Assembly (NCBI GenBank): GCA_014360655.1
Contig: JACIXC010000001.1
Coordinates: forward strand, 17,173 to 81,172
From: Actinomycetota bacterium
GTDB lineage: Bacteria > Actinomycetota > Geothermincolia > Geothermincolales > RBG-13-55-18
Direction: 5' to 3'
Length of the DNA stretch: 64,000 bases
A program made the translations under genes and the position numbers. Shown one piece after another: positions 9,913 to 52,719 of this stretch (its first letter is position 1; every line of letters begins with the position of its first letter). The notes beneath the pieces were generated by a model. The model worked only from the letters and a program-made list of their open reading frames with translations, was not told the origin of the DNA and searched no databases.

Positions 9913-10013
9913 TGCTCCTCCCGGGCCGTTTTTCTCATCCCTTCCCCAGCGCCTCCCGGAAACACGCGGCGCCGTGCCGCGCAGGATGACTTCGCGTCAT
10001 GCTCCCTGGCCCC

Positions 10014-11234: not shown

Positions 11235-11291
11235 TCCTTACCCGGTGCTCTTCCGGGGTTAGGACGCGCCGGGCCCCTTTTTCGTTCCACG

Positions 11292-11624
11292 CTACCACCT
11301 TTCCACGAACTGCTCGAAATAGCTGAGGAACGAGTATTCGGATAGGACCCGTTGCCGCTCCTCGTGCAGGGAGCGGATGTGCCTCATGTCGCGGGCGGCC
11401 CCCCTGCAGCCTTCTCCCTCGATGAGGGCGATCAGTTCGTTGTTGCGCCGCCTCAGCTCCTCCAGGCGCAGGTGAAAACCGGGGATGTGCATGGCCAGCA
11501 GCTCCTCGCCGCGGAAGCGCGCCATCGCGCGGCAGCGCGTGCACGCGAAGCACCCCGCTTCCTCCGTCTCCTCCGCCCAGGCGTCGCACAGGGGGCAACG
11601 ACGCCCGCTCTCCCCGTCCTGCAA
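11292..11624 (-). CDS. Hypothetical small zinc-ribbon protein
   Basis: 110 aa. CPLCDAW...CFACTRC paired CxxC. Clean intergenic placement. No family recognised. Confidence 0.4.
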   Translation of the reverse strand: MQDGESGRRCPLCDAWAEETEEAGCFACTRCRAMARFRGEELLAMHIPGFHLRLEELRRRNNELIALIEGEGCRGAARDMRHIRSLHEERQRVLSEYSFLSYFEQFVERW

Positions 11625-11873
11625 ATCTACCTCCCGTAAAACCGCCCACGTGCATTATCTCCCCTTGCACGCGGACATGCCATGACGCATCCCGCCCTGC
11701 CGCCACCGTAAAGCGCGGGCGGGAGGCTCGGCGCCCCCCGCCCCACGCGACGCTCTCCGCGGCCCCGCTTCCCCGCGCCCCTTACTCCTTTACTTGATCA
11801 CATCACTCCATATCGCTACACGGCGGCCACGGCGCCGTCCTACCCTTCCTCCTGTTCTTCCTCTAATGTTCTT

Positions 11874-25635: not shown

Positions 25636-26871
25636 CTATTCCTCGCCCACTATGGCCTCCCCGGCTACCAGTGCCAGGAAGTCGTTGGAACCGTCCTCGA
25701 TGAGGCCCGCCCGGGCGTCCCGGAAGAGCTTCTCTATGGTCGACTCCTTGGAAAGCCCGAAGCCCCCCATGAGCTGCACCGCCTCGTTGGCCACCTCGAA
25801 GGCCGCCTGGGTACAGAAGACCTTGGAGGCGATGGAGTACTGGGTGAGAGGCGGGTTGGTGTTGAAGTTGAACTCCATGACCGCGCGCGAGAAGGCGCGG
25901 CACGCCTCCACCAGCTTGAACATGTGGAAGAGCTTGTAGCGGACCAGCTGGTGCTCTATGAGCCTCTTCCCTCCCTGCACCCTCTGCTTGCAGTAGGCGA
26001 GCGCTTCCTCGTAGCAGGCCCGCGCGACGCCGGTGAAGAAGGCGCCCATGCTGGCGTTGGCCGTGGACAGGGTGACATCCAGCATGGCTTCGTAGGAGTC
26101 CTGTTCGATGAGCATGTACTCCCTGGGCACCCTCACGTTGTCGAAGTATATCTCCCCCTGGTTGAGGGCCCGCTGTCCCAGCTTGTTCCAGGGTTTCCCG
26201 CGCGAGACGCCCGGCAGGTCGAGGGGGACGATGCATATTCCTCCCCCGGCCATGCCCATCTCGGGGTCGATGGTCAGGTAAACGGTGGCGTGGGTGGCGA
26301 TGGTCCCGCAGGACACCCATGCGGCCTTGGTGCCGTTGATCACCCACTCGTCCCCGTCCAGGACGGCGCGGCAGGCGGTGCGGGCGATGTCCGGGTTGCA
26401 GAACTGCTCCGTGAAGGGGGCCAGGGTATCCGAGCCGTGGTCGGGCTCCGTGATGGCCCAGCAGCCGATCATCTTGGCCTCCTCGTCCTCGCAGTAGGGG
26501 ACGATGATGTTCTCGATGAGGAACTCCGTGGGCACCAGGCTGGCCAGGAAGGCCGGAAAGCAGGCCACCCCGAAGGCGATCATGAAGTCGATGGAGCCCC
26601 AGGATATCTCCTCGAAGAGCATGTGTACCTCGAGGGGCGAGAAGCCGCCTCCGCCGTAGATCTCGGGTATGAGTATCTTGTGCAGGCCGATCTTGTAGCC
26701 CTTGCGGAACACATCCCAGAAAACGGATTCCTTGGCGATGACGTCCTCGGGATCCAGCTTGTCCAGCTCCAGGCTGGCCGGGCGCAGCACCTCGCTCGCG
26801 AAGGTGTGCACCATGTCGCGGTTCATCTTCTGCACCTTGGTGATGTTCAGGTTCAGGTCGGTGTACGGCAT
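25636..26871 (-). CDS. Acyl-CoA dehydrogenase
   Basis: 411 aa. ACAD N/M/C domains. C-terminal RDARAGLIEDGSN carries the catalytic Glu in the IxEG position. Confidence 0.85.
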   Translation of the reverse strand: MPYTDLNLNITKVQKMNRDMVHTFASEVLRPASLELDKLDPEDVIAKESVFWDVFRKGYKIGLHKILIPEIYGGGGFSPLEVHMLFEEISWGSIDFMIAFGVACFPAFLASLVPTEFLIENIIVPYCEDEEAKMIGCWAITEPDHGSDTLAPFTEQFCNPDIARTACRAVLDGDEWVINGTKAAWVSCGTIATHATVYLTIDPEMGMAGGGICIVPLDLPGVSRGKPWNKLGQRALNQGEIYFDNVRVPREYMLIEQDSYEAMLDVTLSTANASMGAFFTGVARACYEEALAYCKQRVQGGKRLIEHQLVRYKLFHMFKLVEACRAFSRAVMEFNFNTNPPLTQYSIASKVFCTQAAFEVANEAVQLMGGFGLSKESTIEKLFRDARAGLIEDGSNDFLALVAGEAIVGEE

Positions 26872-26916
26872 GCTTACCCCCTCCCTTTCACGGCGCTCTT
26901 ACCCTTCCCTGCCTCT

Positions 26917-28527
26917 TCACAGGTAATCCTCGGCCCGGTAGACGTTTTCCGCCTGCGGCGAAAACTCCTCGCGCAGCACCCGGTCCAGGTACTTCTCCGA
27001 GGCGCTCTTGGGAATCTCTTCCACCACCTGCAGGTAACTCGGGACGGCGTTCTTCTCCAGGCCCTCGGCGGCCTTCCTGAACACGGAAGCGGGATCGATG
27101 GAGCGGCCCTCGAAGGGAGCCACCGCGGCGACCAGGTCGCTCTCCCCGGGAGCCCCGGAGGAGGCCGGTATGCCGTATACGCACACCTCGGACACGTCGG
27201 GGTGCTCCCCGATGACCTTCTCCACGTAGGAGGGGATGATGAACTCGCCCTGGCGCCGCAGCCCCCCTCCCTCCTTGCGGTAATCGAAGAAGAGCCAGCC
27301 TTCCTCGTCGCGGTGGACCATGTCGCCGGTGCGCAGCCAGCCCCCCCGCGTCTTCGCCGCAGAGTCCTCGGGTCTCCCGTGGTACTCCACCTCGGGCTTC
27401 TGAGTGACCGCCCGCATGAGCAGCTCACCGGTGACGAAGGGCGGCACCTCGTTGTCGTTCTCGTCCACGATCCTGTACTCCATGAGCCCTTCGATGGGCT
27501 TGCCGAAGGAGCCTACGGGGCCCTGGTCGATTGGCTTGTAGGCGAAGCCTCCCTCCACCGCCCCGTACCATTCCAGTATCTTCACGTTGAAGCGCTTCTC
27601 GAAGTCCTCCCAGATGGCCACGGGGGTGCCCGCGGAGATGACCACCTCCACGGGGTTGTCCGCGTCGTCCGGCCGCGGCGGCTCGTTGTAGATACCGGAC
27701 ATCATGCCCCCCAGGAGGGAAAAGGTGGTGCAACCGTAGCGCCGGCATATGTCCCAGATGCGGCTCTTGGTGAAGCGCTGGCTGATCACCGCCCGGATGC
27801 CCAGGGCCAGGGCGGACATCATGGTCACCGCCTGGGCATTGCCGTGGGTGAGGGAAAGGCCGGTGTAGAGGATGGAGTCCTCCGTGTATCCCCACACCAT
27901 CCTGGCGAGGGCGGTGTACATCAACGTGCGCGACGCCTTGATGACCACTCCCTTGGGGTTGCCGGTGACCCCCGAAGTGTAGATTATTTCCATGGGGAGG
28001 TTCGGGTCATCCACCCTGCCTTCAAGCTCGTAGATGTCCGGGCCGTCCACCAGCTCGTTCACGGTGGGATACTTCGTGGCCAAAGAAAGGTCGGCATCCG
28101 GTTTAAGGTTGAGCCAGATGCGCTCAATCCCCGGCAGGGTTCTCGCCTGCGCCTCCACCTCCGGCAACAGGTCGGCGGTGGTGATCACGGCCCTGGCCCT
28201 GCAGTCACCCAGCATGTAGGCGAGCTTCTCGCCCCGGGATCGAGGGTCTATGGGCACCGCCACGTAGCCGAGCAGGTTGGCGGCCGCCATGGCGTAGACC
28301 ATCTCAGGGTGGTTGCGCATGACCAGGGCCACGGCATCCCCCTTGCCTATGCCGCTCTCCCGCAGGCCCCTGGCCACCTTGAAGGTGTTGGCCACCAGCT
28401 GGCGGTAGGTCAGGGGCTCGTCACGGTAAAGCCCGCCGTTCTCGAAGACCAGCCCCACGAACTCGGGCTTCTCCTCCATGCGCATCTCCATCTGGTGAAA
28501 GATGAGCGCGGGGTTTTTCTCCTCCAT
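26917..28527 (-). CDS. AMP-dependent acyl-CoA synthetase (paralog A)
   Basis: 536 aa. YTSGVTGNPKGVV AMP-binding motif. About 75% aa identity to 31458-33197 with about 100-bp near-identical DNA blocks. Confidence 0.85.
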   Translation of the reverse strand: MEEKNPALIFHQMEMRMEEKPEFVGLVFENGGLYRDEPLTYRQLVANTFKVARGLRESGIGKGDAVALVMRNHPEMVYAMAAANLLGYVAVPIDPRSRGEKLAYMLGDCRARAVITTADLLPEVEAQARTLPGIERIWLNLKPDADLSLATKYPTVNELVDGPDIYELEGRVDDPNLPMEIIYTSGVTGNPKGVVIKASRTLMYTALARMVWGYTEDSILYTGLSLTHGNAQAVTMMSALALGIRAVISQRFTKSRIWDICRRYGCTTFSLLGGMMSGIYNEPPRPDDADNPVEVVISAGTPVAIWEDFEKRFNVKILEWYGAVEGGFAYKPIDQGPVGSFGKPIEGLMEYRIVDENDNEVPPFVTGELLMRAVTQKPEVEYHGRPEDSAAKTRGGWLRTGDMVHRDEEGWLFFDYRKEGGGLRRQGEFIIPSYVEKVIGEHPDVSEVCVYGIPASSGAPGESDLVAAVAPFEGRSIDPASVFRKAAEGLEKNAVPSYLQVVEEIPKSASEKYLDRVLREEFSPQAENVYRAEDYL

Positions 28528-28618
28528 CGCTGCGTCCCTCCTCTAAGCCCTGCCTCCTGCGCCAGCAGGCATCTCGCCCGCGGCGGCATGTCCAGCCTGT
28601 CTCGAACGCCGTTTACCC

Positions 28619-29269
28619 TCACTCAACCGCACCCATGAAACGACGGGTGAAGGAGGGGAACTCCCTGGCGAATATCTCCGCCCATTCCTCCTCCGTCCAG
28701 TACTTGTGACGGTCGAAGAAGGGGTCCCGCGGCTGGTAACTGACCGCCACCCCGATGCAGAAGTCCACGTCCTCTATGAACTCGCAGGCGGGCGCGGCGG
28801 CGCCTATGGTCTGGAAGACGCGGCAGTGCAGCCCCAGGCGCCAGGCCATGGCCGCCGCGGCGTTTGCCGCCATGTGCACGTCGTAGACAACGAAGTGGCA
28901 GCACGGGCCGTTTATGATAGACTCTACTTCATCCGCCTTGTTCAGCTCCTCGCAGGTGCGAAAACCGCAGGCCCCGCAGTCGAAGTTGTAGACGGATTTT
29001 CTCCTCGCCCCTATCAGCAGCGCACGGGCATCCTCCTTGGCCAAGTCCAGAAAGCTCCTGCCGTCCCGGTTGAAGAGGGGCGAGACCTCCGCCACGCCTT
29101 CGCAATATCCCGACAAGTCCTCGAATTCCTCCGGTCCTATGGCCGCCATCCTGATCCTGGGATGCCCGAATTTCAGGGCCGTGGAAGCCGCAACCGCCAT
29201 GAGCTCCACCGCCCGGTCGAGACCACCGCCCAAGAGCTCCTCAGCTTTTTTGACCGCCATGGCACGCAC
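28619..29269 (-). CDS. Cys-rich protein, DUF2148/COG4739-like ferredoxin-domain protein (tentative)
   Basis: 216 aa. DCGACGFRTC and GPCCHF motifs. Paralog of the adjacent gene. Confidence 0.45.
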   Translation of the reverse strand: MRAMAVKKAEELLGGGLDRAVELMAVAASTALKFGHPRIRMAAIGPEEFEDLSGYCEGVAEVSPLFNRDGRSFLDLAKEDARALLIGARRKSVYNFDCGACGFRTCEELNKADEVESIINGPCCHFVVYDVHMAANAAAAMAWRLGLHCRVFQTIGAAAPACEFIEDVDFCIGVAVSYQPRDPFFDRHKYWTEEEWAEIFAREFPSFTRRFMGAVE

Positions 29270-29273
29270 CCCC

Positions 29274-29933
29274 TCAACAGTAGATGGAACGGAAGGTGGG
29301 AAAGAGCCGGTGGATAAGCCTGTTGGAAAGGGTCGCGTCGTTGAACTCGTCCCAGCGGCGCGGCAGGTCGCGGTAGGGGCTCTTCTCCGTCACCGAGGCG
29401 AGGAAGCCCAGGGCGATGCCGCACCCGTGCGGGACCAGCCCCGTGCGCACCGCGGCCGCCCCCACCGACATCTTCACGGCATGATCGATGCCCAACTGCC
29501 GGGCCAGCGAAACCGCCCCGTTGAGCGCATAGGCCATGTTCATGGAGCGCAGCAGGCAGAAGGGCCCGCGAAAGGCCACCGAGGGCTCATCCGGGAGACG
29601 TTCCGCATCCCGCCAGTTGTCGCACAGGATGTTGCCGCACAGGTTGCAGTTGGAATCCATTGGATCGTGCCCGGCGCGCCTGTCGGCCATGATGAGGACG
29701 ACATCGGAGTCGCGCACCTGGACGGCATCGGAGCGGAAGAAATCCCAGCGGGGGTTGTCCGCCGCCATGCGCTCGACGGCGATCGCCAGGTCCTCGATGG
29801 CGTCCCGGTCGTCGAGGGCCACCACGCAGATCTCGTCTATGCCCCCCACGCGGGGGGAGGTGACGGCGGAAGCGAGGAGGAGCTTGCAGGCTTCCCTGGC
29901 GCTTTCCGCCCGCCTTTCCTCGTATTCCCTCAT
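29274..29933 (-). CDS. Cys-rich protein, paralog of 28619-29269 (DUF2148-like, tentative)
   Basis: 219 aa from ATG 29933 (SD GGAAAGGA 5 nt upstream). NCNLCGNILC and GPFCLL motifs in positions equivalent to the neighbour. Confidence 0.45.
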   Translation of the reverse strand: MREYEERRAESAREACKLLLASAVTSPRVGGIDEICVVALDDRDAIEDLAIAVERMAADNPRWDFFRSDAVQVRDSDVVLIMADRRAGHDPMDSNCNLCGNILCDNWRDAERLPDEPSVAFRGPFCLLRSMNMAYALNGAVSLARQLGIDHAVKMSVGAAAVRTGLVPHGCGIALGFLASVTEKSPYRDLPRRWDEFNDATLSNRLIHRLFPTFRSIYC

Positions 29934-30051
29934 TATCCTTTCCACGGAACATCCCTCCCTTGCAAGAATGCGCCTATACGAGCGGGAAAAACACGTCACG
30001 GAAAAAAGCGGCCCGGCCGTGACCGCGAGCGGCGGCGGCCGCGTGCGCCCG

Positions 30052-30453
30052 TCAGGTGGGCAGCCCCTTTTCCTCGCAGATCTTGGGATAGGCCTCGTAG
30101 GCTGGCTTGAGCAAGGGGAGCATGCCGAGGATCTTGCTCATGGGACCCTTGGCCTTCACCTTGCGCTTGGCCAAGGCCACGGGCAGCTTGAGCTTCTGCA
30201 GCCAGAAGTTGTGGCAGTCATCTCCGGCAAGCCACATGACCACGTCCGGCTCCGCCTCCGTCTCCCCCAGGGAGAGGGATGGCTTCTCGTCGCCGTGCAG
30301 CAGCCAGATCTCCCCGTCCGGATCGTTGATCACGAACTGCACGTTGATGTTCTCCTCGTTGAATTTCCTCGACACCGTCTCGTCCTCGAGCAGCTTGGTG
30401 AAAAGCTCGCCCAGGACCTCGTACATGTGAGCGGTATCCTTGAAGACAGCCAT
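30052..30453 (-). CDS. SCP2 sterol-carrier-like lipid-binding protein
   Basis: 133 aa from ATG 30453 (MAVFKDTAHMYEVLGELFTKL...). SCP2 fold sequence pattern. The maximal ORF N-terminus was discarded. Confidence 0.7.
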   Translation of the reverse strand: MAVFKDTAHMYEVLGELFTKLLEDETVSRKFNEENINVQFVINDPDGEIWLLHGDEKPSLSLGETEAEPDVVMWLAGDDCHNFWLQKLKLPVALAKRKVKAKGPMSKILGMLPLLKPAYEAYPKICEEKGLPT

Positions 30454-30629
30454 CGCGCACACCCCTTTCCCTCTCCTGCTAAACCGGTTGCCGGACATGC
30501 CGATACATACCAGAGTATGATACCATGGTATGTGATTGTCAAGGTCGCGCCGGAAAGCCCGGAGCGGCACAGGGAACAAAGGCGGCTGCCGTGCCGAAGG
30601 AGCCGCAAGCGTGACCGACGAGGTGCATC

Positions 30630-31301
30630 GTGCCCGAAAAGGCTCGCCTTTCGCGGAGGGAAAGAGGCTTGGCGACGAAGAAGGAGCTCTTCGAAGCCGC
30701 CATCTCGCTCTTCGCCAGGAAGGGCTACGACAAGGTCACCGTGGACGAGATCTGCGAGAAGGTGGGGGTGACCAAGGGCGCCTTCTACCACCACTACCGC
30801 TCCAAGGACCAGATCATCCTGGAGGAGTTCAAGCAGATGGACGAGCACTACGCGCGCGTGGCCGAGGAGATCTCCTCCCTCCCCGGCACCGTGGAAAAGC
30901 TCCGGGCCTTCAACCGCGCGGCCATCACCCTCATGGCGGAGCTGGGGGTGACCCTGATGAAGGTCCTCTACCACTCCCAGATCGCCCCCCACATGAGGAA
31001 ACCCTACCTCGCCGACGGCCGCCGCTCTCTCTACCGCATCACCGGCGAGCTCATCAGGGAGGGGCAGGAAAGGGGCGAGATCCGCGACGACCTGCCGAGC
31101 GAGGAACTGGCGGCGATGCTCATCGACTGTTTCCGCGGGCAGATCTACCACTGGTGCCTTTGCAACGGCGCCTTCGATCTCGTGGGCACCTGCGAGAGGC
31201 TCATGGACCTTCTCGTCGACAGCCTGAAGCCCCCGCAAAGCGCGCGCCAGCGCGGCGATTCCGGCAAGCTCCCCGGGCGGCGCCCTTCCCGACCCGCGTG
31301 A
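30630..31301 (+). CDS. TetR/AcrR-family transcriptional regulator
   Basis: 223 aa. N-terminal HTH RKGYDKVTVDEICEKVGVTKGAFYHHYRSKDQI. Confidence 0.85.
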   Translation: MPEKARLSRRERGLATKKELFEAAISLFARKGYDKVTVDEICEKVGVTKGAFYHHYRSKDQIILEEFKQMDEHYARVAEEISSLPGTVEKLRAFNRAAITLMAELGVTLMKVLYHSQIAPHMRKPYLADGRRSLYRITGELIREGQERGEIRDDLPSEELAAMLIDCFRGQIYHWCLCNGAFDLVGTCERLMDLLVDSLKPPQSARQRGDSGKLPGRRPSRPA

Positions 31302-31457: not shown

Positions 31458-33197
31458 TCAGGCGTAATCCTCCAGGCGGTAGACGTTTTCCGCGTCGGGA
31501 CGGAAAGCCTCGCGCAGGAGGCGGTCCAGGTGCTTCTCCGAGGGGCTCTTGGGAATATCTTCCACAACCTGCAGGTAACTGGGCACGGAGTTACGCTCCA
31601 GGCCGGCCAGGGCCGCCTTGAAGACGGAATCCGGGTCTATACTGCGGCCTTCGAAGGGGACCACCGCCGCCACCAGGTCACTCTCGCCCGGTGCGCCAGA
31701 GGCCGCCGGGATGCCGTAGACGCACACCTCTGAGACGTCGGGGTGTTCCCCGATGACCTTCTCCACCAGGTCGGGCTTGATGAAGTCGCCGGCCCGCCGC
31801 AGCGCTCCTCCCTTGCGGTAGTCGAAGAAGAACCACCCCTCCTCGTCACGGTGCACCATGTCCCCGGAGCGCAGCCAGCCGCCCCGCATCTTCTCCGCCG
31901 AGGCCTCCGGTTTCTTGTAGTAATCCACCTTGCTCTGCGTGAGCATGCGGCAGATGAGCTCGCCGGTCACGCCGGGAGGCACTTCGTTGTCCTCCTCGTC
32001 CACCACTTTCATCTCCACCAGCCCGGGAAGGGGCTTTCCGAAGGACCCTATTGGGCCCTTGCCGATGGGCCGGTAGGCGAAACCGCCCTCGATGGCCGCG
32101 TACCACTCGAGGATCTGGACGCCGAAGCGCCGCTCGAAATCCTCCCATATGGCCCGCGGGGTTCCCGCCGATACCACCATGCGTACCGGGTTGTCGGCGT
32201 CGTCCGGGCGCGGCGGCTCGTTGTAGATCCCGGACATCATGCCCCCCAGGAGGGAGAAGGTGGTGCATCCGTAGCGGCGGCACACATCCCATATGCGGCT
32301 CTTGGTGAAGCGCTGGCCTATCACCGCCGGGATGCCCATGGCCAGCGACGGGAAGAGGGTGACCGCCTGGGCGTTCCCGTGCGCCAGGGAAAGCCCGGTG
32401 TAGGGGATGTCGTCCTCCCGGTAGCCCCAGACTATGTACCCGAGCAGGCAGTACATGGCGTTGCGGCGCGAGTCCAGTGTGACCCCCTTGGGGTTGCCCG
32501 TCACCCCGGAGGTGTAGATGATCTGCACCGGGGCGGAGGGGTCACCGGCCGCCCCCTCCGGCTCCCGCGGCGGGTTCCCCTCCAGCATCTCGTTGAGCGT
32601 GGGGTAACGCGAGGCGAGGGAGGGGTCGGCATCCGGCTTCAGGTTCAGGTAGATCTTCGGCGAGGCCGAGACGCTCCTCGCCGCCGCCTCCACCTCCGGC
32701 AGGAGGTCAGCGGTGGTGACCACGGCCCTGGCGTCGGAGTCCGCCAGCTGGTAGGCGAGCTTCTCTCCCCTGGCGCGGGGGTCGATGGGCACCAGCACCG
32801 TGCCCAGCAGGCTGCAGGCGGCCAGCGCGTAGACGAACTCGGGGTGGTTGCGCATGACCAGGGCCAGTTTGTCCCCCTTCTCGAACCCCTCGCGCCGCAG
32901 CCCCTCCGCCAGACGCAGGGACCGGGAGTAGAGCTGCGCGTAGGTCAGCCTCTCGTCCTCGTAGAGACCTCCGTTCTCGAAGATGAGCCCGGTGCGGTTG
33001 GGGCTCTCCTCGGCGCGTTGCGCGAGGAGCCCGGAAAGCAGCCCCCTGTGCCGGGGCAGCCTGGTTTCCGCCACCCCGCGCACGGCGCGGGAGACCAGGT
33101 CGACGTGGGCCAGGAACTTGAGCGCCATGTATAGCCTGGGATTTTTTTCCTCCAGCTTTTTCAGGGCCGGCTTATCGAAGATCTTATCCAGATCCAT
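31458..33197 (-). CDS. AMP-dependent acyl-CoA synthetase (paralog B)
   Basis: 579 aa. YTSGVTGNPKGVT motif. Shares long identical peptide runs with paralog A (IYNEPPRPDDADNPV, KVIGEHPDVSEVCVYGIPA.SGAPGESDLVAAV). Confidence 0.85.
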   Translation of the reverse strand: MDLDKIFDKPALKKLEEKNPRLYMALKFLAHVDLVSRAVRGVAETRLPRHRGLLSGLLAQRAEESPNRTGLIFENGGLYEDERLTYAQLYSRSLRLAEGLRREGFEKGDKLALVMRNHPEFVYALAACSLLGTVLVPIDPRARGEKLAYQLADSDARAVVTTADLLPEVEAAARSVSASPKIYLNLKPDADPSLASRYPTLNEMLEGNPPREPEGAAGDPSAPVQIIYTSGVTGNPKGVTLDSRRNAMYCLLGYIVWGYREDDIPYTGLSLAHGNAQAVTLFPSLAMGIPAVIGQRFTKSRIWDVCRRYGCTTFSLLGGMMSGIYNEPPRPDDADNPVRMVVSAGTPRAIWEDFERRFGVQILEWYAAIEGGFAYRPIGKGPIGSFGKPLPGLVEMKVVDEEDNEVPPGVTGELICRMLTQSKVDYYKKPEASAEKMRGGWLRSGDMVHRDEEGWFFFDYRKGGALRRAGDFIKPDLVEKVIGEHPDVSEVCVYGIPAASGAPGESDLVAAVVPFEGRSIDPDSVFKAALAGLERNSVPSYLQVVEDIPKSPSEKHLDRLLREAFRPDAENVYRLEDYA

Positions 33198-33242: not shown

Positions 33243-34238
33243 TCAGGGCATCTCCTGCCAGGTCTTTCCCCCCTTGCGCCAGATGATGCGGGGCAGCTCG
33301 CGCTTGACCATGGTGTCGGCGTTCACCCGCGGGTAGCCCATGACCAGGGCCGTCACCGGGACGTAGGGCCACTTTATCCCCAGGTACCGCTTCACCCAGG
33401 GGAGCATCTTGGCTCCCACGGCCGCGAAGCTTAGGTAACAGGTGACCAGGCCCAGGGAGTGCGCGGCCAGTACCATGTTCTGGCCGCAGATCCCGATATC
33501 GACGTACATGTTGTTGATGCCCCGCTTGTCCCCCAGCAGATACACCAGGCAGGGAGCCCCCAGGAAGACGTCACGGGGCTTGAGGATGGCCTTCCCCCCC
33601 GTCATGGCCCTCTGGTCCATCAGGGGCGGGACGACGGCCGAGGAAAGGGCGAGGGCCCCCCTCAGGAGGACGTTGCGCTTCCCGGCGAAGTAGAAGGCGG
33701 TCAGGAAGCGGTAAAAGGGGTCCATCATGTCCGCGATCCTGTCCATCTCCTCGCGGTCGTTGACGATGATGAAGCTCCAGGGCTGGCAGTTGCCGTGGGA
33801 GGGCGCGAAGCGCCCCGCCTCCACAACGCGTCGCACTAACTCGTCGGGCACCGGTTTGCTGGAGAATATGCGGTTGCTGCGGCGCTTGTAGATGACCTCC
33901 TCCACAGGGGTCAGCCCCTGGATGCCCTCCACCTCCGGCACGCGGGGATAGCCGTCGTCGGGATGGAGGTGCAGAGTCCGGAAGAGGCCCTCCTCCACGT
34001 TGTAGAAGCCGCGCATGGAAACGGCGTCCTTCTCGCAGTGGGACACGCATGCCGAGCAGGACATGCAGACGACTCCCTCGATCATCCTCGCCTTTCCGCC
34101 CACCACCTCCAGGCAGGCGCACGGGCAGGCCTGCACGCAGTTTCCGCATCCCGTGCACCTCTCCTCGTCCACGACAATGGTGGAGTTGGACCAGGCTTCC
34201 GGATGGGCCGGCAGGTAAGTCTTGCTGAATTTTCCCAT
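33243..34238 (-). CDS. 4Fe-4S ferredoxin-nitroreductase fusion protein
   Basis: 331 aa. N-terminal CTGCGNCVQACP / CMSCSACVSHC ferredoxin motifs. C-terminal nitroreductase-family fold (RRSNRIFS..., HGNCQPWSFIIV). Confidence 0.75.
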   Translation of the reverse strand: MGKFSKTYLPAHPEAWSNSTIVVDEERCTGCGNCVQACPCACLEVVGGKARMIEGVVCMSCSACVSHCEKDAVSMRGFYNVEEGLFRTLHLHPDDGYPRVPEVEGIQGLTPVEEVIYKRRSNRIFSSKPVPDELVRRVVEAGRFAPSHGNCQPWSFIIVNDREEMDRIADMMDPFYRFLTAFYFAGKRNVLLRGALALSSAVVPPLMDQRAMTGGKAILKPRDVFLGAPCLVYLLGDKRGINNMYVDIGICGQNMVLAAHSLGLVTCYLSFAAVGAKMLPWVKRYLGIKWPYVPVTALVMGYPRVNADTMVKRELPRIIWRKGGKTWQEMP

Positions 34239-34283
34239 GAGAACCCCTACCTCCTTCTTCCATCTCGCCGTCGCACCCCGCGC

Positions 34284-35306
34284 TCAGCTTTCGACCCTCT
34301 CTTGCTTTTTCTCCACGTCGCCTTCCCCGCGCACCTCGACGGTCATCAGTATCTCCCCGCATGCCCCCAGGGGAAGGCCCGCGCCGTAACAGTTCATGGG
34401 AAGGTCGAAGAGCGCGCCGCGGAAATCCTCCTCGCCGTCGACCGCGGCGGCCATGCGGTCGAGGACCAGCATCACCCGCCACCAGATCTTGGCAAGGGCC
34501 ATGATGCAGGCGCCCTCCCCCTTGCCGCTCGCTAGGACCCTTCCCAGGGCATCCAGGTGGAATTCGTCGCCCTCCCCGTGGCCGGCCGGGCAGGCGTGCG
34601 CGGAGACCACCTTGACCACGATGCGGCGGTCCTTGTACTTTTCCGCGGCAAGCAGGCGCCGCACGCGCTTCGGTGATGCCAGGAAGGCCGCGAGCTCCTC
34701 CTCCCCGAGGGGCAATCCCCTCATGAACGCGTCCGGCTCGGGTCCCCCGGAAAGCGGCGCCTCCCTCACCGCCCGGCACTCCCCCCGCGCCCTGCGGTTC
34801 CTAACGAGAAGGTAGGGGGCCATGGTGAGCAGGAAGTACAGGATCTCCGGCAGGGGCATCTTCTCCCGCCGTATCCTGAAGAGGTTGTTCCCCAGGCCTC
34901 CCATCTCCAGGCCGGTATCCGTGCAGGTCACGTGGTCGAAGAGCATGCCGTTGGGGTCCTTCCCCCGCAGCATGTAGTCGTAGTAGGCGTAGATGACCGG
35001 GGAGAGCTGGGAAAGTCCGTGTATGCAGATGCCGGGCGGGCACCTGTGCCTGATGAGCATGCCCATGGGGTTGAAATAGAGCGGCCGCCCCTCGTTGTGG
35101 CATCCCGAGCAGTGGTTGGAGCACACCGGCTCCGCCACCAGCCAGTAGGTCATGGCCTCAACGTTCAGCGCCTCCAGCAGCCCCAGCCGCGACGCCTGTG
35201 CGAATTCCTCCTCCGTGTAGCCCCAGCGGTTCATGATGACCCTCTTGAGGACGGGCCTGGAGGCCCAGTTGAGAAAACCCCACACGCCTCGCATCGGCTT
35301 GTCCAT
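34284..35306 (-). CDS. Hypothetical Cys/His-rich protein (two putative metal-binding clusters)
   Basis: 341 aa from ATG 35306. CSNHCSGCH ... HRCPPGICIHG cluster and C-terminal HACPAGHGEGDEFH ... NCYGAGLPLGACGE cluster. The upstream 250 codons of the maximal ORF overlap the thiolase gene and are rejected. Confidence 0.5.
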   Translation of the reverse strand: MDKPMRGVWGFLNWASRPVLKRVIMNRWGYTEEEFAQASRLGLLEALNVEAMTYWLVAEPVCSNHCSGCHNEGRPLYFNPMGMLIRHRCPPGICIHGLSQLSPVIYAYYDYMLRGKDPNGMLFDHVTCTDTGLEMGGLGNNLFRIRREKMPLPEILYFLLTMAPYLLVRNRRARGECRAVREAPLSGGPEPDAFMRGLPLGEEELAAFLASPKRVRRLLAAEKYKDRRIVVKVVSAHACPAGHGEGDEFHLDALGRVLASGKGEGACIMALAKIWWRVMLVLDRMAAAVDGEEDFRGALFDLPMNCYGAGLPLGACGEILMTVEVRGEGDVEKKQERVES

Positions 35307-35524
35307 CCCATCACCCCCATCCTTGACCGCCCGCATCGGCGATGCGCGCACGCACCCGATAATCCGGCCCGTAACAAGCAATCCATGCCCCGCAAGCCCA
35401 CCCCGGGGCATCCCCCGCCCGTGCCCATGTGCTCGCTCAGCCCAGCCCGGAGAGACCCTCGCCTCGCCCAAGCCGGAAGCACGCGGCCCGCGCGCGGGCC
35501 GGGGAGCGGTCCCCCCGCAGCCCC

Positions 35525-36787
35525 TCAGGTCGCGACCTTTTCCAGTATATGGATGCACATGGCCGCTTCCCCGGTGCCGATGAAGCCGCCCCCGTTCTCG
35601 GAAAGGGCGATGCGAGCGCCCTCCACCTGGCGCCTTCCCGCCTCGCCGCGCAGCTGGGTCACCAGCTCGTGGATCTGGGCGATGCCGGATGCCCCTATGG
35701 GGTGTCCCCTGCACTCGAGGCCGCCGCTCGTGTTCACCGGAAGCTTTCCCCCCAGCCTGGTGGCGCCGGACTCCGCGAAGGGCCCTCCTTCCCCTTCCCC
35801 GCAGAAACCGAGCTCCTCCGTCTGCAGCAGTTCCCCGAAGGCGGTGGCGTCGTGCACCTCGGCCACGTCGACGTCCCCGGGGCCTACCCCGGCCACCTCG
35901 TAGGCCTTGGCGCTCAGCCTCTTCCCTATGAGGTCCATCTCCCCTCCCTCCGGCAGGGTCCCCGAGGTGAGCACGGAGGCCAGTATCTTCACCGGCCGGG
36001 CGCCGGGATAACGACGCAGTGCCCGCCCGGAGCAGAGAAGGGCGGCGGAGGCCCCGTCCCCCATGGGAGCGCACATGGCCCGCGTGAGCGGGTAGGCCAC
36101 CGGCCTGTCCGCGAGCACCTCTTCCACGCTCATGTCCACCTGGTACTGTGCCAGGGGGTTCAGCGAGGCATGGTAATGGTTCTTGGCGGCGATCACCGCG
36201 AGCTGGCGTTGTGTTGTGCCATATTTTTCCATATGCATGCGGGCGGCCATGGCGTAGATGTCCATGAAGGGCGAGCGCCCTCCCCCGCCTCCCCCGGACT
36301 TGGCCTCCCCCTTGGCCGACGCCTCCTCAGCCTTCCTGCGCTCGTCCGCCTGGAAGGCCTCGATGATGGCCCGTATGAATTCCACGTCCGCGTTGGACAT
36401 GAACATCTCGAACATGGCCTGCTTGTTCTCCGGGTTGTACATCTTCTCCACCCCCAGGGCCAGGGCCACGTCGTACTGGCCGGCCTTTATGCCCAGGTAA
36501 GCGCCGTGCAGGGCGCTGGTGGCCCCCGCGCAGGCGTTCTCCACGTTCATCACCGGTATCCCCTGGATGCCCAGCGGGGTAAGGGCCACCTGTCCCCGGA
36601 TGCTGTGCTGCCCCGTCACGATCCCCCAGAAGGAATTGGAGAACCAGGCGGCCTCGATCTCCTCCCTGCGCACCGGACAATCCCGCAAAAGGGCCTCCAG
36701 GACCTCGGCGGTCATCTGCTTGATGCTCTTTTCGGGGTACTTCCCGAAGCGGATCATTCCCACGCCGATGATGTAAACCTCATCCAT
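35525..36787 (-). CDS. SCPx-type (nonspecific lipid-transfer protein) thiolase
   Basis: 420 aa from ATG 36787 (SD AAGGAGG). N-terminal active-site Cys region (NACAGA), C-terminal GHPIGASG thiolase signature. Confidence 0.85.
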   Translation of the reverse strand: MDEVYIIGVGMIRFGKYPEKSIKQMTAEVLEALLRDCPVRREEIEAAWFSNSFWGIVTGQHSIRGQVALTPLGIQGIPVMNVENACAGATSALHGAYLGIKAGQYDVALALGVEKMYNPENKQAMFEMFMSNADVEFIRAIIEAFQADERRKAEEASAKGEAKSGGGGGGRSPFMDIYAMAARMHMEKYGTTQRQLAVIAAKNHYHASLNPLAQYQVDMSVEEVLADRPVAYPLTRAMCAPMGDGASAALLCSGRALRRYPGARPVKILASVLTSGTLPEGGEMDLIGKRLSAKAYEVAGVGPGDVDVAEVHDATAFGELLQTEELGFCGEGEGGPFAESGATRLGGKLPVNTSGGLECRGHPIGASGIAQIHELVTQLRGEAGRRQVEGARIALSENGGGFIGTGEAAMCIHILEKVAT

Positions 36788-36990
36788 CCCTGCCTCCTTG
36801 CAAAACCACGACACTTACCACGTCACCACCGCACCGGGCATCGGGGGCGGACAAGATCATGTTAAGCGCAACGGGGCGCGCGTCTCAAGGGCAAGGGCCA
36901 AGGGCAAGGGCCTCCCGGACCTCGGCGGCATGCCGTTTCTCACCCGCGACGCGCCGCTCTCGCCGAGCCATTTGCGCCTTCCCCTTCCCG

Positions 36991-38043
36991 TCAACCTTCG
37001 GAGAGGGCGAGCATGCGCAACAGTACCTCCTGCGGGGTGCGGGGGTACACCTGGCAGTACTTGGCATCGCGCATCAGGCGCTCCATGCCGTAATCGCGCA
37101 TGTACCCGTAACCCCCGTGTACCTGCACCCCGTCGGTGGCGGCCTGGAAGGCCCCCTGCGTGGCGCGAAGCCAAGCGGTCATGGCGGGGATCATCTCCCG
37201 GCTCTCGCAGGCGCGACGCACCAGCGTCCTGCCCTCCTCCACCACGGCCACCATCCCCGCCAGGAGGAGGCGTATCCCCTGGTGCTGGATGATCGTCTTT
37301 CCCGCCTGGTACCTCTCGCAGGCATAGGCGTGGGCCTTGTCCAGCGCCTTGCGCGCGATGCCCACCCCGATGGAGGCCAGGCCCACGTGGAGCAGCCTCT
37401 CCACGGCTTCCACCATACCCGCGCCCGTGACGGCATTGGCCGGGGATACGCCCTCGAGGCGCAAGGCCCCCGGACGCGCGGGCCGCAGCCCCAGCGGATA
37501 GGCCTCCGGCGTCACCCGCAAGCCTTCCGCCTCCCTGCCCAGGGCGAGGGCCGTGTCGTGGCCCTCCCCCCGCACCAGAACGACTATGGCCCCTTCCGCG
37601 GCGGCGTTCAGGGCGAAGGGCACGCTTCCGTTCACCCTGTCTCCCGCCATGGAGACCTCCCCGGGAAAGGCCAGGCACGCGGGGAAGGATGCGCCGCCGA
37701 TCCCGGTGATGAGCCCCTGCAGCTCGCCCAGCGCCGTCGGGTAAAGGGCGGCGTTATGGGCAAGGAGCGAGGCCGCCAGGCCGGCGCACTCCACGGCGAT
37801 CTCCTCCAGCGCCACGCAGAAGGCGTACTCGTCAAGCCCCCCTCCCCCCGCGTCCTCGGGGAGCAGCGCCGCGAAAAGGCCCAGGTCCCCGGCGCGGAGA
37901 AAGGCCTCGCGCACCCGCGGGGAGCCGGGTTCGAGGTCCGCCTCTTCCGCCAGGGGTGCCAGTTCCTTTGCCGCGTAGGAGGCGGCGGTCTCGCGCAGGA
38001 TCCCGTACTCCTGCTTCTCTTCCATGCCGGCAAGCCTCACCAT
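36991..38043 (-). CDS. Acyl-CoA dehydrogenase-like subunit lacking the canonical catalytic Glu (putative non-catalytic partner)
   Basis: 350 aa. ACAD fold throughout, but the catalytic-base region reads RDAKYCQVYPRTPQEV instead of RDARI..IYEGT. Start codon is 1 nt after the stop of the upstream ACAD. Confidence 0.65.
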   Translation of the reverse strand: MVRLAGMEEKQEYGILRETAASYAAKELAPLAEEADLEPGSPRVREAFLRAGDLGLFAALLPEDAGGGGLDEYAFCVALEEIAVECAGLAASLLAHNAALYPTALGELQGLITGIGGASFPACLAFPGEVSMAGDRVNGSVPFALNAAAEGAIVVLVRGEGHDTALALGREAEGLRVTPEAYPLGLRPARPGALRLEGVSPANAVTGAGMVEAVERLLHVGLASIGVGIARKALDKAHAYACERYQAGKTIIQHQGIRLLLAGMVAVVEEGRTLVRRACESREMIPAMTAWLRATQGAFQAATDGVQVHGGYGYMRDYGMERLMRDAKYCQVYPRTPQEVLLRMLALSEG

Positions 38044-38044
38044 A

Positions 38045-39520
38045 TCACCTCACCCCCTTCTTGAAGGGGCGCGGCACTTCCACCTTCAGCGACCCCTCCA
38101 CTTCCGTGTTGAAGACCACCAGGCGGTTGAGCTGGTTGGTCCCCTCGTAGATCTGGGTCAGCTTCGCGTCGCGCAGGGACTTTTCCACCCAGCGGCGGTG
38201 CGGGGTATCGTCCAGCCCCATGACCTCCAGCGCCCGCGAGATGATCTCCATGGCGTTGTCCGCGCAGCGGAACTTGGCCAGGGAAGCCTTGGCCAGGAGG
38301 TCCGTGACCTCCTCGTCCCCTATGAAATGGCGGAATAGGGTGTTCACAACCCCCTTGCCGTAATAGGAGTTGTAGAAGGCCGCCATGGGCTTCGCGGTGC
38401 GCAGGGCGCGCGGCATGCTGAAGGCCGCCTGGAAGACGGGATGGGTGAAGGCGCTGCGGAAGACGGCATCCCCCAGCAGGGCGTGGTTGAGGTACAGGCC
38501 CCGGTTCTCCTGGATCATGGCCAGCATGTCCGCCAGGGTCATGCGCACGCGGTCCTCGTCCGCGGGACGTTTGCCGTTACGCCTTTCCAGCGCCCAGGCC
38601 CGGAAGTGCTCGAAGGCCCCCCGGGCGATGCCCGTGGCTATGGCCCCCACGGGACCACGCGAGGAGGCCATGATGATGAGAATGCCGTTGGCCATGCCGT
38701 CGCCGGGATAGCCGAGCACGTGGGAATCGGGGACGAAAACGTCCTCGAAGAGCAACTCCGCCGCGTGGCAGGCGCGCTGTCCCATCTTCAGCTCCACGCG
38801 AGGTGTGGAAAATCCTTCCATGCCCCTCTCCACCAGGAAGGTGGTCCATGTTTCAAGGGGCCGGCTGCGGTCGATCGCCGCGCACACCGTTATGTACTTG
38901 GCCTCGCTGCCGCCGGATATGAAGCACTTGCGGCCGTTGAGGATGTAGCCTCCTTTCACCCTCCTGGCCTCCAGGCTGAGGCGGGCCACCTCCAGGAACT
39001 CCGGTTCCTCCACGTCGGTTCCCGCCGAAGGCTCGGTGATGGCATAGGCCATGACCACCGGGTTGCCCTTCTTCTCCTCCTCCGCTATCTCGTGCAGGAC
39101 GGTGTCCCAGTGGGCCAGGGCCCCGGAGGCGATCACCGGGGAGACCCCCAGGCTGTGGGCCCCTATGGCCAGCCCGATACCCCCGCAGCAGGAGCACAGC
39201 TCCTCCACCACCAGGGACATGCCGGAAACCAGGTACTCCTTGGCCAGCCCTCCCACCACCTCGGGGATGATCAGGGAGAAGAAACGGTACTTGCAGGCCT
39301 CCCGCATCATCTCCCAGTCGAAGTACTCCGGCTCGCGCTCCATGCGCTCGTCCAGGGCGAGGGCCCTCGGCTCCGCCACCGCGCGGTTATATTCCACGGC
39401 CCTCTCCACCAGCTCGATCAGCCAGTCGATCCCCTTGCGGTCATGCTCGCGCAGGGCGGCCAGGACGGGGAAATCGGTCAGCACCCTCTTTCCCACTTCG
39501 CTCACTCCGCGTCCTCTCAT
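38045..39520 (-). CDS. Acyl-CoA dehydrogenase (catalytic subunit)
   Basis: 491 aa from ATG 39520 (SD GGAGAGGGGGG). C-terminal LTQIYEGTNQLNRLVV carries the catalytic Glu. Confidence 0.8.
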   Translation of the reverse strand: MRGRGVSEVGKRVLTDFPVLAALREHDRKGIDWLIELVERAVEYNRAVAEPRALALDERMEREPEYFDWEMMREACKYRFFSLIIPEVVGGLAKEYLVSGMSLVVEELCSCCGGIGLAIGAHSLGVSPVIASGALAHWDTVLHEIAEEEKKGNPVVMAYAITEPSAGTDVEEPEFLEVARLSLEARRVKGGYILNGRKCFISGGSEAKYITVCAAIDRSRPLETWTTFLVERGMEGFSTPRVELKMGQRACHAAELLFEDVFVPDSHVLGYPGDGMANGILIIMASSRGPVGAIATGIARGAFEHFRAWALERRNGKRPADEDRVRMTLADMLAMIQENRGLYLNHALLGDAVFRSAFTHPVFQAAFSMPRALRTAKPMAAFYNSYYGKGVVNTLFRHFIGDEEVTDLLAKASLAKFRCADNAMEIISRALEVMGLDDTPHRRWVEKSLRDAKLTQIYEGTNQLNRLVVFNTEVEGSLKVEVPRPFKKGVR

Positions 39521-40346
39521 GATCCCCCCTCTCCGTAGACACCAAGAACCGTTCTCCCCTCCGCCGAAAAGCATGCGAAAACCTCCTCGCACCGCGTCAG
39601 GCCGGTGCAGTTCCCATGCTTTTCCTACTCCCCGCCGCTTCCGCCGGAATCGCAGCCCTTCACGTTCCCCGGGGTGGGCCGGCCCGGCCAGCCGGCGACC
39701 CCGCCCACACGCATACAAAAGGAACGCAACTGTACATACGTATAATACAATAAATCCTTTCACTGCAAAGACGGCGGTGGATTCTTCCCCTTGTAAAAAG
39801 AATCTCCCGTCATCAGGCCACCTGCCTCGCGCACGGGACGGGAACCCAGCGCTTGAAGCGAACTTGCGATCTCATCGACGTCGGGGGCTCCGGAGGCCGG
39901 CCGCTCCCCGGCGAGTTGCCGGTGCACTGTCCCGCACCGCCGGGCCGTTGTCTTTCGGCGCGCGTTCACTCCCGCAAGTCAAACCCACAGCCGCCTCCCT
40001 TGGGCGCATGCATGCCCGCGCACCCTGTCGAACGGTAGCTCTTGGTCAACGGTGACTTTAAACCGCCGGTGGAAAAATCCGATAGAATAGTAAGTGTCAG
40101 TTGCTGCGGCCGCCCGGGAAGGCCCGACAACACCGCGAAGGACGGGAGGCGGGGGGTGCCGCTTGCGCGGGGAGGACCAGGCAAGGGGGCATGTGCTCCC
40201 GGTAAGCATGGGAAGTCGATGTTTTTCAGTAATCCGCTTCCTTGGCATGGCGGAACGCCAAACGGGAAGGGGTGAAAGAATGCCCTGTCAGCACGGCCTC
40301 GCATGCCGCACCCAGGTGGCATTACGGAGTAAGAGAGTGAGGTATC

Positions 40347-48197: not shown

Positions 48198-48317
48198 ACA
48201 AGAAACCGACCTCTATGTGAAGAGGCCGGTTTCACTGTTAGCTCCCGGCGGCTCCCGAGTGACCAAACTACAAGCCGCCTTTCAAAGCTTCCTCTTGCTC
48301 TTTAGATAATTCTAACA

Positions 48318-52634: not shown

Positions 52635-52719
52635 TGGTGCCCGGGGCGGGAGTCGAACCCGCACGGGATAACCCGAGGGAGTTTAAGTCCCTTGTGTCTA
52701 CCGGTTCCACCACCCGGGC
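52635..52719 (-). tRNA. tRNA-Leu (anticodon UAA), type II with long variable arm
   Basis: Minus-strand sequence GCCCGGGTGGTGGAACCGGTAGACACAAGGGACTTAAACTCCCTCGGGTTATCCCGTGCGGGTTCGACTCCCGCCCCGGGCACCA. 7-bp acceptor stem. Anticodon loop CTTAAAC. GGTTCGACTCC T-arm. Encoded CCA. Closely resembles E. coli leuZ. Confidence 0.85.

Follow-up and report, generated by a model that had tools for sequence, protein, structure and literature searches.

The genes described here lie in a 64-kb window, the whole stretch of DNA that was analysed, and are transcribed in the order thiolase, Cys/His-rich protein, ferredoxin-nitroreductase fusion and CoA ligase (Table 1). Both ORFs singled out by the earlier note, the fusion and the Cys/His gene, exist on the minus strand as listed. 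The Cys/His gene had been placed directly downstream of the nitroreductase on the same strand; the strand is correct, but the gene is transcribed before the nitroreductase, from which it is separated by a 45-nt spacer containing GGAGG. Orthologues of the small acyl-CoA dehydrogenase (ACAD) subunit have 350-351 amino acids and are always paired with a larger ACAD, and the TetR-family gene occupies the same position in the homologous loci L009, L013, and L020. NCBIfam assigns no named family to the DUF2148 and SCP2 genes. The GC content of the window is 65%, and many long non-coding ORFs are present. No second copy of the Cys/His gene was found within the window, and an Rfam scan of the whole window gave no match near the gene.

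Table 1. Genes, domains and intergenic features around the Cys/His gene (positions within the window)
Feature	Position	Strand	Remarks
Acyl-CoA dehydrogenase, large subunit	38045..39763	-	maximal ORF 572 aa; orthologues ~491 aa
Acyl-CoA dehydrogenase-like small subunit	36991..38043	-	350 aa; no Pfam ACAD middle-domain match
SCPx/lipid-transfer-type thiolase	35525..36814	-	429 aa; Thiolase_C_1, Thiolase_N; PRK06064, PRK08256; directly upstream of Cys/His gene
Spacer, thiolase gene to Cys/His gene	35307..35524	-	non-coding, without coding periodicity; aligned to orthologous spacers
Tandem TIGR04076-like protein (Cys/His gene)	34284..35306	-	CDS, 340 aa
Alternative start of Cys/His gene	ATG 35294	-	336 aa
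Module 1, aa 1-165	34812..35306	-	helical leader with NRWGYTEEE motif + alpha/beta domain
Module 2, aa 176-335	34302..34781	-	helical leader (LPLGEEELAAFLASP) + alpha/beta domain; TIGR04076-matching part
Ferredoxin-nitroreductase fusion	33243..34238	-	331 aa; Pfam, NCBIfam, Cys motifs; 2x[4Fe-4S]-type aa 17-80, nitroreductase aa 112-305
Acyl-CoA synthetase (AMP-binding)	31458..33197	-	last gene of operon
TetR-family regulator	30630..31301	+	between the two sub-clusters
Second sub-cluster	25636..30579	-	five genes
SCP2-like	30052-30579	-	second sub-cluster
DUF2148	29274-29999	-	second sub-cluster
DUF2148	28619-29269	-	second sub-cluster
Acyl-CoA synthetase	26917-28527	-	second sub-cluster
ACAD	25636-26871	-	second sub-cluster

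The fusion is, as proposed, a nitroreductase with an N-terminal two-cluster ferredoxin. Two CxxCxxCxxxC motifs (Cys 28/31/34/38 and Cys 58/61/64/68) are present, and several Fer4 models match amino acids 19-75 (Fer4_7 36.5 bits and Fer4 32.2 bits, both over their cutoffs). The Nitroreductase model (PF00881) is covered at positions 1-167 of 167 by amino acids 116-302 with 107.2 bits compared with a cutoff of 23.5. NCBIfam makes no equivalog-level assignment for the fusion, and its PDB sequence matches are to a polyferredoxin and nitroreductases.

The Cys/His gene is real and strongly conserved. It encodes 340 amino acids rather than the 341 first counted, a number of codons that includes the stop. 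Its codon-position GC values (0.65/0.45/0.89) resemble those of the neighboring genes, whereas the 218 nt 5' of it read 0.78/0.72/0.74 in the same frame and are non-coding. About 120 close homologues (117 counted) of ~320 amino acids are 50-90% identical to the protein, and since the N termini of all 117 lie 20-22 residues ahead of the NRWGY motif the trimmed start is right, homologue length fitting ATG 35294 slightly better than ATG 35306. The trimming made in the earlier note is thus borne out, and the maximal ORF of 596 aa is an artefact of the high GC content. A spurious ORF is suggested by the base composition, the abundance of long non-coding ORFs and the overlap of the maximal ORF with the thiolase gene; this explanation is already refuted by the strong coding periodicity, the 117 homologues with 41 invariant columns in their alignment and a confident fold prediction (AF2 model with pLDDT 88.3 and pTM 0.81). 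The spacer toward the thiolase gene contains a GC-rich hairpin (GGCCCGCGCGCGGGCC) and, at 35320, an ancestral start that survives as an out-of-frame remnant. Motifs kept in the orthologous spacers were not found in the aligned spacer of the window, and a candidate sigma-54 promoter 5' of the Cys/His gene was rejected by eye for its unsuitable spacing.

In the protein, two ~150-aa modules that arose by internal duplication are fused head to tail, each composed of a ~45-aa helical leader followed by a TIGR04076-like alpha/beta domain (pLDDT 83 for the module 2 domain model). Comparison of the two modules with hhalign gives a probability of 96.4% (E 1.1e-9). Against A4, an alignment of ~145-aa single-module relatives, module 1 aligns over its full length with a probability of 99.95% (E 1.8e-38) and module 2, likewise full length, with 99.8% (E 1e-27). 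The profile search that had been proposed for the protein returns TIGR04076 at 29.6 bits (E 7.6e-7), under the curated cutoff of 33 bits, aligning amino acids 228-281 with model positions 3-54 of 91. The C-terminal half alone scores 22.3 bits, and the N-terminal half (module 1) alone does not match this HMM. All 37 members of A1, the alignment of the Cys/His protein family, match TIGR04076 (best E 4.3e-9), and ten single-module relatives scanned one by one reach at most 27.2 bits. The A4 profile recovers proteins to which NCBI gives the name "TIGR04076 family protein" (P0269 and P0358) and which JGI likewise calls TIGR04076; the close tandem homologues are labeled "uncharacterized repeat protein (TIGR04076 family)" by JGI and hypothetical proteins by NCBI. 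The protein is therefore homologous to TIGR04076-type modules. TIGR04076 itself is an uncharacterised ~90-aa Cys-containing domain (model length 91), whereas the protein of the window is of a 320-340-aa tandem type and not a small single domain. Pfam matched no family to either the trimmed or the maximal ORF, and the family profile gave no match to PDB sequences at E<=10.

It follows that the earlier statement that no family could be named is superseded by the HMM and hhalign results. A match to a known family, such as a hydratase or a zinc-finger protein, had been set out as evidence against the claim. That objection applies formally because the protein matches a TIGR04076-like family; no hydratase or zinc-finger family was matched, and the TIGR04076 family is itself one without a characterised function or a known solved structure.

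Eight cysteines are invariant in A1, four per module (C66, C89, C94, and C128 in module 1; C239, C267, C306, and C316 in module 2). Only part of the two dense Cys/His clusters originally quoted is conserved, as C62, C69, H70, and C177 vary in the alignment while C128 and C267 had been missed. Three cysteines are equivalent between the modules (C66/C94/C128 and C239/C267/C306) and, respectively, follow strand 1, cap the N terminus of the long helix and lie within strand 3; the fourth lies at non-equivalent positions, C89 and C316. The convergence of four cysteines in each module is predicted from their secondary-structure positions only. The same three cysteines are invariant or nearly so in 25 single-module relatives, in which the fourth position is taken by a Cys before the helix, a Cys in CGGWG or the invariant Asp of CxD. 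Some relatives, P0119 and P0149, have only three cysteines per module. None of the invariant cysteines form a CxxC pair, the sole CxxC (C66-C69) not being conserved. Cysteine makes up 3.2% and histidine 2.3% of the protein, and the signal lies in conservation, not composition. Module 1 also has invariant H96, Q100, S102, P103, Y106, D110, T129, and D130, and H243 of module 2 is nearly invariant. With so many invariant non-Cys residues, module 1 resembles a site for ligand binding or catalysis more than it does a simple carrier of electrons. Another relative, P0151, has a twin-arginine signal, which is typical of cofactor-carrying exported proteins.

The hosts of the ~120 close homologues are all uncultured anaerobes of the Actinomycetota, Chloroflexota, and Desulfobacterota, with hot springs, tar and sulfidic sediments among the source habitats. 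Among 65 non-identical loci of the tandem gene, 20 have a ferredoxin or nitroreductase (NTR) within 5 kb in four different arrangements, although the type-A loci belong to related Actinomycetota and cannot be counted as independent. The tandem gene is followed by the ferredoxin-NTR fusion in at least 10 Actinomycetota loci; NTR and a separate 107-aa ferredoxin precede it in L023 and L032; NTR, ferredoxin and a CoA ligase precede it in L050; and a separate ferredoxin follows it in L048. An acyl-CoA dehydrogenase is near the gene in 19 of the 65 loci, CCG-domain proteins in 8 and old-yellow-enzyme (OYE) in 4. These further recurrent neighbors are redox enzymes (flavin and Fe-S) that belong to acyl-CoA metabolism. 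Orthologous Actinomycetota loci contain the ACAD pair, SCPx-type thiolase, tandem protein, ferredoxin-nitroreductase and CoA ligase together with TetR, SCP2, two DUF2148 genes, a CoA ligase and an ACAD, and a rearranged version occurs in the Desulfosarcinaceae loci L006 and L008, where the second sub-cluster set is linked to the tandem gene. Because this set recurs, the redox genes are no chance addition to the beta-oxidation island, in agreement with the unusual redox content remarked upon earlier. Many copies of the tandem gene stand alone, with unrelated housekeeping genes around them. Of the 24 loci that extend at least 3 kb from the gene in both directions, six lack every tracked partner, and no hidden common partner was found among the neighbors of 20 orphan copies. 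One single-module relative lies inside a FadB-SCP2-NMO-ECH cluster (three samples).

The module architecture, the cysteine pattern, the twin-arginine signal of P0151, the gene contexts and the anaerobic hosts tentatively suggest that the tandem protein may be an Fe-S-type redox protein of anaerobic acyl-CoA metabolism that partners the ferredoxin/nitroreductase pair, a role we regard as possible but short of probable. The two fused TIGR04076-type modules would form a pseudo-dimeric metalloprotein in which each offers three equivalent cysteines and a module-specific fourth ligand (C89 in module 1 and C316 in module 2) to what we infer could be one Fe-S-type cluster per module. The flavoprotein of the nitroreductase family and its 2x[4Fe-4S] ferredoxin domain might then form a short electron chain, with the tandem protein as redox partner or as the component that performs the terminal catalytic step. 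In the window this chain would serve an anaerobic pathway for bulky or branched acyl-CoA, represented by the heteromeric ACAD, the SCPx-type thiolase, SCP2 and two CoA ligases. Both the kind of metal and the exchange of electrons with the ferredoxin, like the substrate, are inferences only. A redox or iron-cluster role has also been guessed for a TIGR04076 protein (PMC8667426), the sole published comment found. Only two papers in the library searched mention the family, and neither puts a function to the test. For no TIGR04076 protein has a bound metal or cofactor been shown, which counts against the Fe-S reading, as do the orphan loci, the relatedness of the type-A loci, the invariant non-Cys residues of module 1 and the relatives with only three cysteines per module.

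A more specific and unlikely version would make the tandem protein the metal-cluster catalytic subunit of an undescribed three-component reductase (NTR-type flavoprotein, 2x[4Fe-4S] ferredoxin and TIGR04076 tandem). In anaerobic members of the Actinomycetota and Desulfobacterota, this enzyme would perform an oxygen-independent redox step on a bulky or branched acyl-CoA that resembles an isoprenoid or steroid. If true, this would be the first function for the whole TIGR04076 superfamily.

Catalysis on an acyl-CoA intermediate, for example by an Fe-S or Zn-dependent hydratase, lyase or reductase with an open coordination position for substrate at the three-Cys site, is somewhat unlikely. It would account for the three-Cys core with its variable fourth ligand, for the 50-90% identity across phyla and for the many invariant polar residues of module 1, and the window operon and the Desulfosarcinaceae cluster, both of which have ACAD and thiolase, yielded no enoyl-CoA hydratase. 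However, a crotonase is close by in the type-A relatives L011, L013, and L020, the fold does not resemble that of hot-dog, crotonase or aconitase-type hydratases, and orphan genomic contexts are common; replacement of the hydratase is weakened by the first two points. This enzyme also overlaps the Fe-S redox protein, from which it differs only in the site of catalysis.

The position of the tandem gene directly downstream of the SCPx-type thiolase, in an operon without a DUF35 partner, raises a structural zinc protein that serves as adaptor for the thiolase or the ACAD complex in the role of the DUF35/BbsA/ChsH2-type Zn-ribbon proteins. The thiolase-tandem gene pair recurs in 12 of 65 loci, and the four-Cys sites could bind Zn. 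Common to the DUF35/BbsA/ChsH2-C partners and the tandem protein is a Cys-containing small protein encoded beside an SCPx-type thiolase in an acyl-CoA cluster, but fold and motifs differ, with no conserved CxxC knuckles and no Pfam match to zf-ChsH2, DUF35_N or the OB-fold domain OB_aCoA_assoc. The thiolase is missing from most of the 65 loci and lies five genes off in the Desulfosarcinaceae loci, and in L003 the adjoining thiolases have their own zf-ChsH2/DUF35 partners, a coexistence that weakens replacement of DUF35 by the tandem protein. Overall, the zinc adaptor is quite unlikely.

A role as a chaperone that handles cofactors, with kinship to the N-terminal domain of the XdhC/CoxF-type proteins that insert the molybdenum cofactor, is highly doubtful. 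The XdhC-family structure 3on5 recurs among the searches, though with marginal scores and Foldseek TM-scores of only 0.17, and in a single case a Fer2/Fer2_2 gene, of the kind usual for molybdenum hydroxylases, is found close to a single-module relative. Compared with the XdhC/CoxF-type accessory proteins (PDB codes 2we7 and 3on5), the tandem protein is without sequence similarity (no XdhC_CoxI or XdhC_C match and no PDB sequence match at E<=10), without the Rossmann-like XdhC_C domain and without systematic linkage to a molybdenum enzyme or Moco gene. A likeness at this level could reflect convergence of fold.

Equally improbable is a redox- or metal-sensing regulator of adjacent operons. Copies of the gene are often monocistronic with a 200-450-nt upstream region and often divergent from ACAD/CCG/OYE operons (L007, L010, and L026-L030), and sigma-54 activators adjoin in L003 and are nearby in L006 and L008. 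Against this, no DNA-binding or signalling domain was found, and in the window the gene is internal to the operon between thiolase and nitroreductase.

The tandem gene does not define a new kind of system and is a lead, not a discovery, holding no surprise for a specialist yet. Anaerobic bacteria and archaea contain thousands of TIGR04076-type proteins, of which the single-module profile alone finds 2260. New here are the domain dissection of the tandem subfamily, the definition of its eight invariant cysteines and the recurrent ferredoxin and nitroreductase-type partner in a conserved acyl-CoA cluster, which together give the anonymous ORF a hypothesis that can be tested biochemically. The repeated occurrence of the gene in uncultured anaerobes next to genes for ferredoxin, nitroreductase and acyl-CoA metabolism makes it a reasonable lead for enzyme discovery. 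Literature searches found no paper on DUF2148 and none on beta-oxidation in Geothermincolia; with two DUF2148 proteins lacking literature, the cluster may therefore be the sign of an anaerobic pathway for bulky acyl-CoA substrates that has yet to be described.

Mycobacterial steroid side-chain operons have heteromeric ChsE/FadE ACADs, an Ltp2-type thiolase and TetR control. The window shares with them a large and a truncated ACAD, a lipid-transfer-type thiolase, CoA ligases, SCP2 and TetR. Its host differs in being an anaerobe, and the MaoC hydratase, P450 and oxygenase are absent; the cluster has instead the ferredoxin-nitroreductase, the DUF2148 pair and the TIGR04076 tandem.

The codon-position GC of the Cys/His open reading frame as trimmed (0.65/0.45/0.89) resembles that of adjacent genes, and the preceding 218 nt, read in frame with it, have the non-coding values 0.78/0.72/0.74. 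Searching 5.8 billion proteins gave 117 homologues that share 50-90% identity with the window protein and, with few exceptions, measure 316-330 amino acids; they begin 20-22 residues ahead of an NRWGY motif, placing the start at ATG 35306 (340 amino acids) or ATG 35294 (336 amino acids). The gene is therefore real, and the trimming made in the earlier note is right. Homologues conserve an ancestral start sequence, ATGGGnnTGATGG, that the window still has at 35320 but out of frame, and the window protein shares a replaced N-terminal peptide with two 90%-identical relatives (protein P0001 and locus L040), which fits a small indel at the gene's 5' end. The thiolase-to-target spacers of orthologous loci are long (165-420 nt); those of L009, L011, L013, L020, and L024 share a GNRA-loop hairpin (GCATCGC-GAAA-GCGATGC), and those of L011, L013, L017, L020, and L024 share the motif CCTGGCACGTGTACGTC. 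The window spacer has neither and carries a GC-rich hairpin instead.

Features of the window and of related loci (L numbers, loci of target homologues or relatives; ACAD, acyl-CoA dehydrogenase)
Sequence	Feature	Coordinates	Strand	Basis
Window	ACAD	38045-39763	-	ORF list, Pfam/NCBIfam
Window	Truncated ACAD-like gene	36991-38043	-	ORF list, Pfam/NCBIfam
Window	SCPx/lipid-transfer-type thiolase	35525-36814	-	ORF list, Pfam/NCBIfam
Window	Thiolase-to-target spacer	35307-35524
Window	Cys/His gene (target), trimmed; maximal ORF up to 36074	34284-35306	-	ORF list
Window	Ferredoxin-nitroreductase	33243-34238	-	ORF list, Pfam/NCBIfam
Window	Acyl-CoA synthetase	31458-33197	-	ORF list, Pfam/NCBIfam
Window	DUF2148 pair	28619-29999	-
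Window	Block syntenic with L010 223-8285	43142-51147
Window	SdrD_B/SpaA-type surface-protein ORF	46599-48197
Window	c-di-GMP-II riboswitch	48215-48301	-	RF03169, 49.2 bits (gathering score 40)
Window	360-aa ORF	51301-52383	-
Window	tRNA gene	52638-52719	-	RF00005, 56.7 bits
L009	Thiolase-to-target spacer	5010-5370
L011	Thiolase-to-target spacer	9789-10013
L013	Thiolase-to-target spacer	9775-10034
L017	Thiolase-to-target spacer	9584-10010
L020	Thiolase-to-target spacer	9717-10013
L024	Thiolase-to-target spacer	9815-10013
L001	Truncated ferredoxin-nitroreductase pseudogene	11273-11758
L002	Truncated ferredoxin-nitroreductase pseudogene	5166-5651
L036-L038	Single-module TIGR04076-like gene	6001-6447

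The Cys/His gene had been placed downstream of the nitroreductase, which is wrong, as it is transcribed first and the nitroreductase follows after a 45-nt spacer containing GGAGG. The nitroreductase itself is correctly described as a fusion with a two-cluster ferredoxin, since two N-terminal CxxCxxCxxxC motifs (Cys-28/31/34/38 and Cys-58/61/64/68) accompany a full-length Pfam match to PF00881 (107 bits). A TetR gene on the plus strand follows the acyl-CoA synthetase end of the run, and beyond it lies a second minus-strand block (SCP2-like, DUF2148, DUF2148, CoA ligase, ACAD). The adjacent DUF2148 genes have no NCBIfam name, the one compared with the PDB (29274-29999) has no sequence relative there, and the literature searched yielded no DUF2148 paper; the pair is kept with ACAD, SCP2, and CoA ligase in Actinomycetota and Desulfosarcinaceae loci alike.

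Pfam has no family for the Cys/His protein, and NCBIfam gives a single sub-threshold match over residues 228-281 (TIGR04076, 29.6 bits against a 33-bit cutoff, E 7.6e-7). The same model matches 37/37 aligned homologues, and many homologues are labeled "uncharacterized repeat protein (TIGR04076 family)" by JGI, so the description of the protein as having no nameable family is not upheld. Residues 45-160 are homologous to residues 215-335 (profile-profile comparison, 96.4%, E 1.1e-9). When 1.84 billion representative proteins were searched exhaustively with an HMM, only 210 relatives emerged at E<=1e-3, including many proteins of ~140 amino acids that match one or other half and several independent tandems. 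The single-module family aligns end to end with each half, helical leader included (99.95 and 99.8%), and its profile pulls out 2260 proteins, among them entries that NCBI calls "TIGR04076 family protein". Judged from the half-to-half homology and these end-to-end matches, the protein is two complete modules fused head-to-tail, each with a ~45-residue helical leader (motif GY-x-[DE]EE) ahead of a β-β-α-β-β domain. The AlphaFold2 model is confident for the whole protein (pLDDT 88.3, pTM 0.81) and for the module 2 domain (pLDDT 83). In its architecture the protein is a new form of a known, unstudied kind.

The alignment spanning Actinomycetota, Chloroflexota, and Desulfobacterota sequences has 41 invariant columns, eight of them cysteine (Cys-66, -89, -94, -128, -239, -267, -306, and -316). 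The Cys/His strings quoted in the earlier note are partly misleading, with Cys-62, Cys-69, and His-70 varying and Cys-128 and Cys-267 overlooked. Aligning the two modules pairs Cys-66 with Cys-239, Cys-94 with Cys-267, and Cys-128 with Cys-306, and leaves Cys-89 and Cys-316 without a counterpart. The three equivalent positions are invariant or nearly so in 25 single-module relatives, and the fourth varies, being a cysteine before the helix, a cysteine in CGGWG, or only the invariant aspartate of a C-x-D motif. No CxxC pair occurs among the invariant cysteines, and a twin-arginine signal is present in one relative. Polar residues are strongly conserved in module 1, a hint that it may itself bind a substrate.

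Among 65 non-identical loci, at least one tracked family lies within 5 kb of the target homologue in 42: a ferredoxin or nitroreductase in 20, ACAD in 19, SCPx-type thiolase in 12, CoA ligase in 11, and a CCG-domain protein in 8. No tracked family is found in 6 of the 24 loci having at least 3 kb on both sides. The full window arrangement is repeated in three loci (L009, L013, and L020) and part of it in 10 (L011, L012, L014, L017, L024, L042, L049, L052, L064, and L065). The ferredoxin/nitroreductase link takes four different arrangements: target then fusion; nitroreductase, free 107-residue ferredoxin, target (L023 and L032); nitroreductase, ferredoxin, ligase, target (L050); and target then free ferredoxin (L048). 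Desulfosarcinaceae loci combine the target with SCP2, ACAD, two DUF2148 genes, a PaaK-like ligase, thiolase, two Amidohydro_2 genes, and a TRAP transporter, with a nitroreductase too in L006. A paralogue group (53-57% identity) is oriented divergently to Fer4-ACAD-CCG or CCG x3-amidohydrolase-OYE operons, and ~20 target copies are monocistronic amid unrelated genes. The genetic partnership with ferredoxin and nitroreductase is newly defined here.

The survey of 185,579 species, one genome each, gave 25 loci, all in metagenome-assembled genomes (MAGs) of Ca. Geothermincola, Ca. Solincola, other Actinomycetota, Anaerolineae, Syntrophaceae, Desulfosarcinaceae, other delta/proteobacteria, and one bin labeled uncultured archaeon; JGI metagenomes added 43. 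All hosts are uncultured anaerobes, and the adjacency to low-potential ferredoxin and flavoenzymes is shuffled yet persistent. Together with the three-plus-one cysteine pattern, the lack of conserved CxxC knuckles, and the Tat-signal relative, these features point tentatively, at somewhat under an even chance, to an Fe-S-type redox protein partnering the ferredoxin/flavoprotein pair in acyl-CoA metabolism. One alternative is a zinc scaffold for the thiolase. A search of PDB sequences down to E<=10 gave no relative of the protein. Similarity to the XdhC N-terminal domain is a lead rather than a demonstrated relationship; an XdhC-like cofactor chaperone is a second alternative, and a sensor a third.

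In L001 and L002 the pseudogene still lies downstream of the target with DDE transposase fragments upstream, indicating an ancestral cluster decaying in that MAG. The L036-L038 gene, from three metagenome samples, sits in a conserved cluster ordered MerR | FadB-like, SCP2, 77 aa, NMO (FMN), DUF6125, module, unknown protein of 220-258 aa; ECH follows directly in L036/L037 and ~2 kb further on in L038.

Elsewhere in the window, the riboswitch is directly upstream of the surface-protein ORF. The block shared with L010, a locus of another actinobacterial MAG, contains Orn/Arg decarboxylase, a 133-aa ORF, an Oxidored_molyb gene, an SdrD_B protein, and two ACADs, and in L010 a divergently oriented target copy follows it. 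The 360-aa ORF has no Pfam family; it is homologous, at 25% identity, to "c22", an unknown protein with a Cys motif (CPxCG...CGSCGG) whose gene adjoins the target in L010/L041 and L072 and lies near it in L001 and L020.
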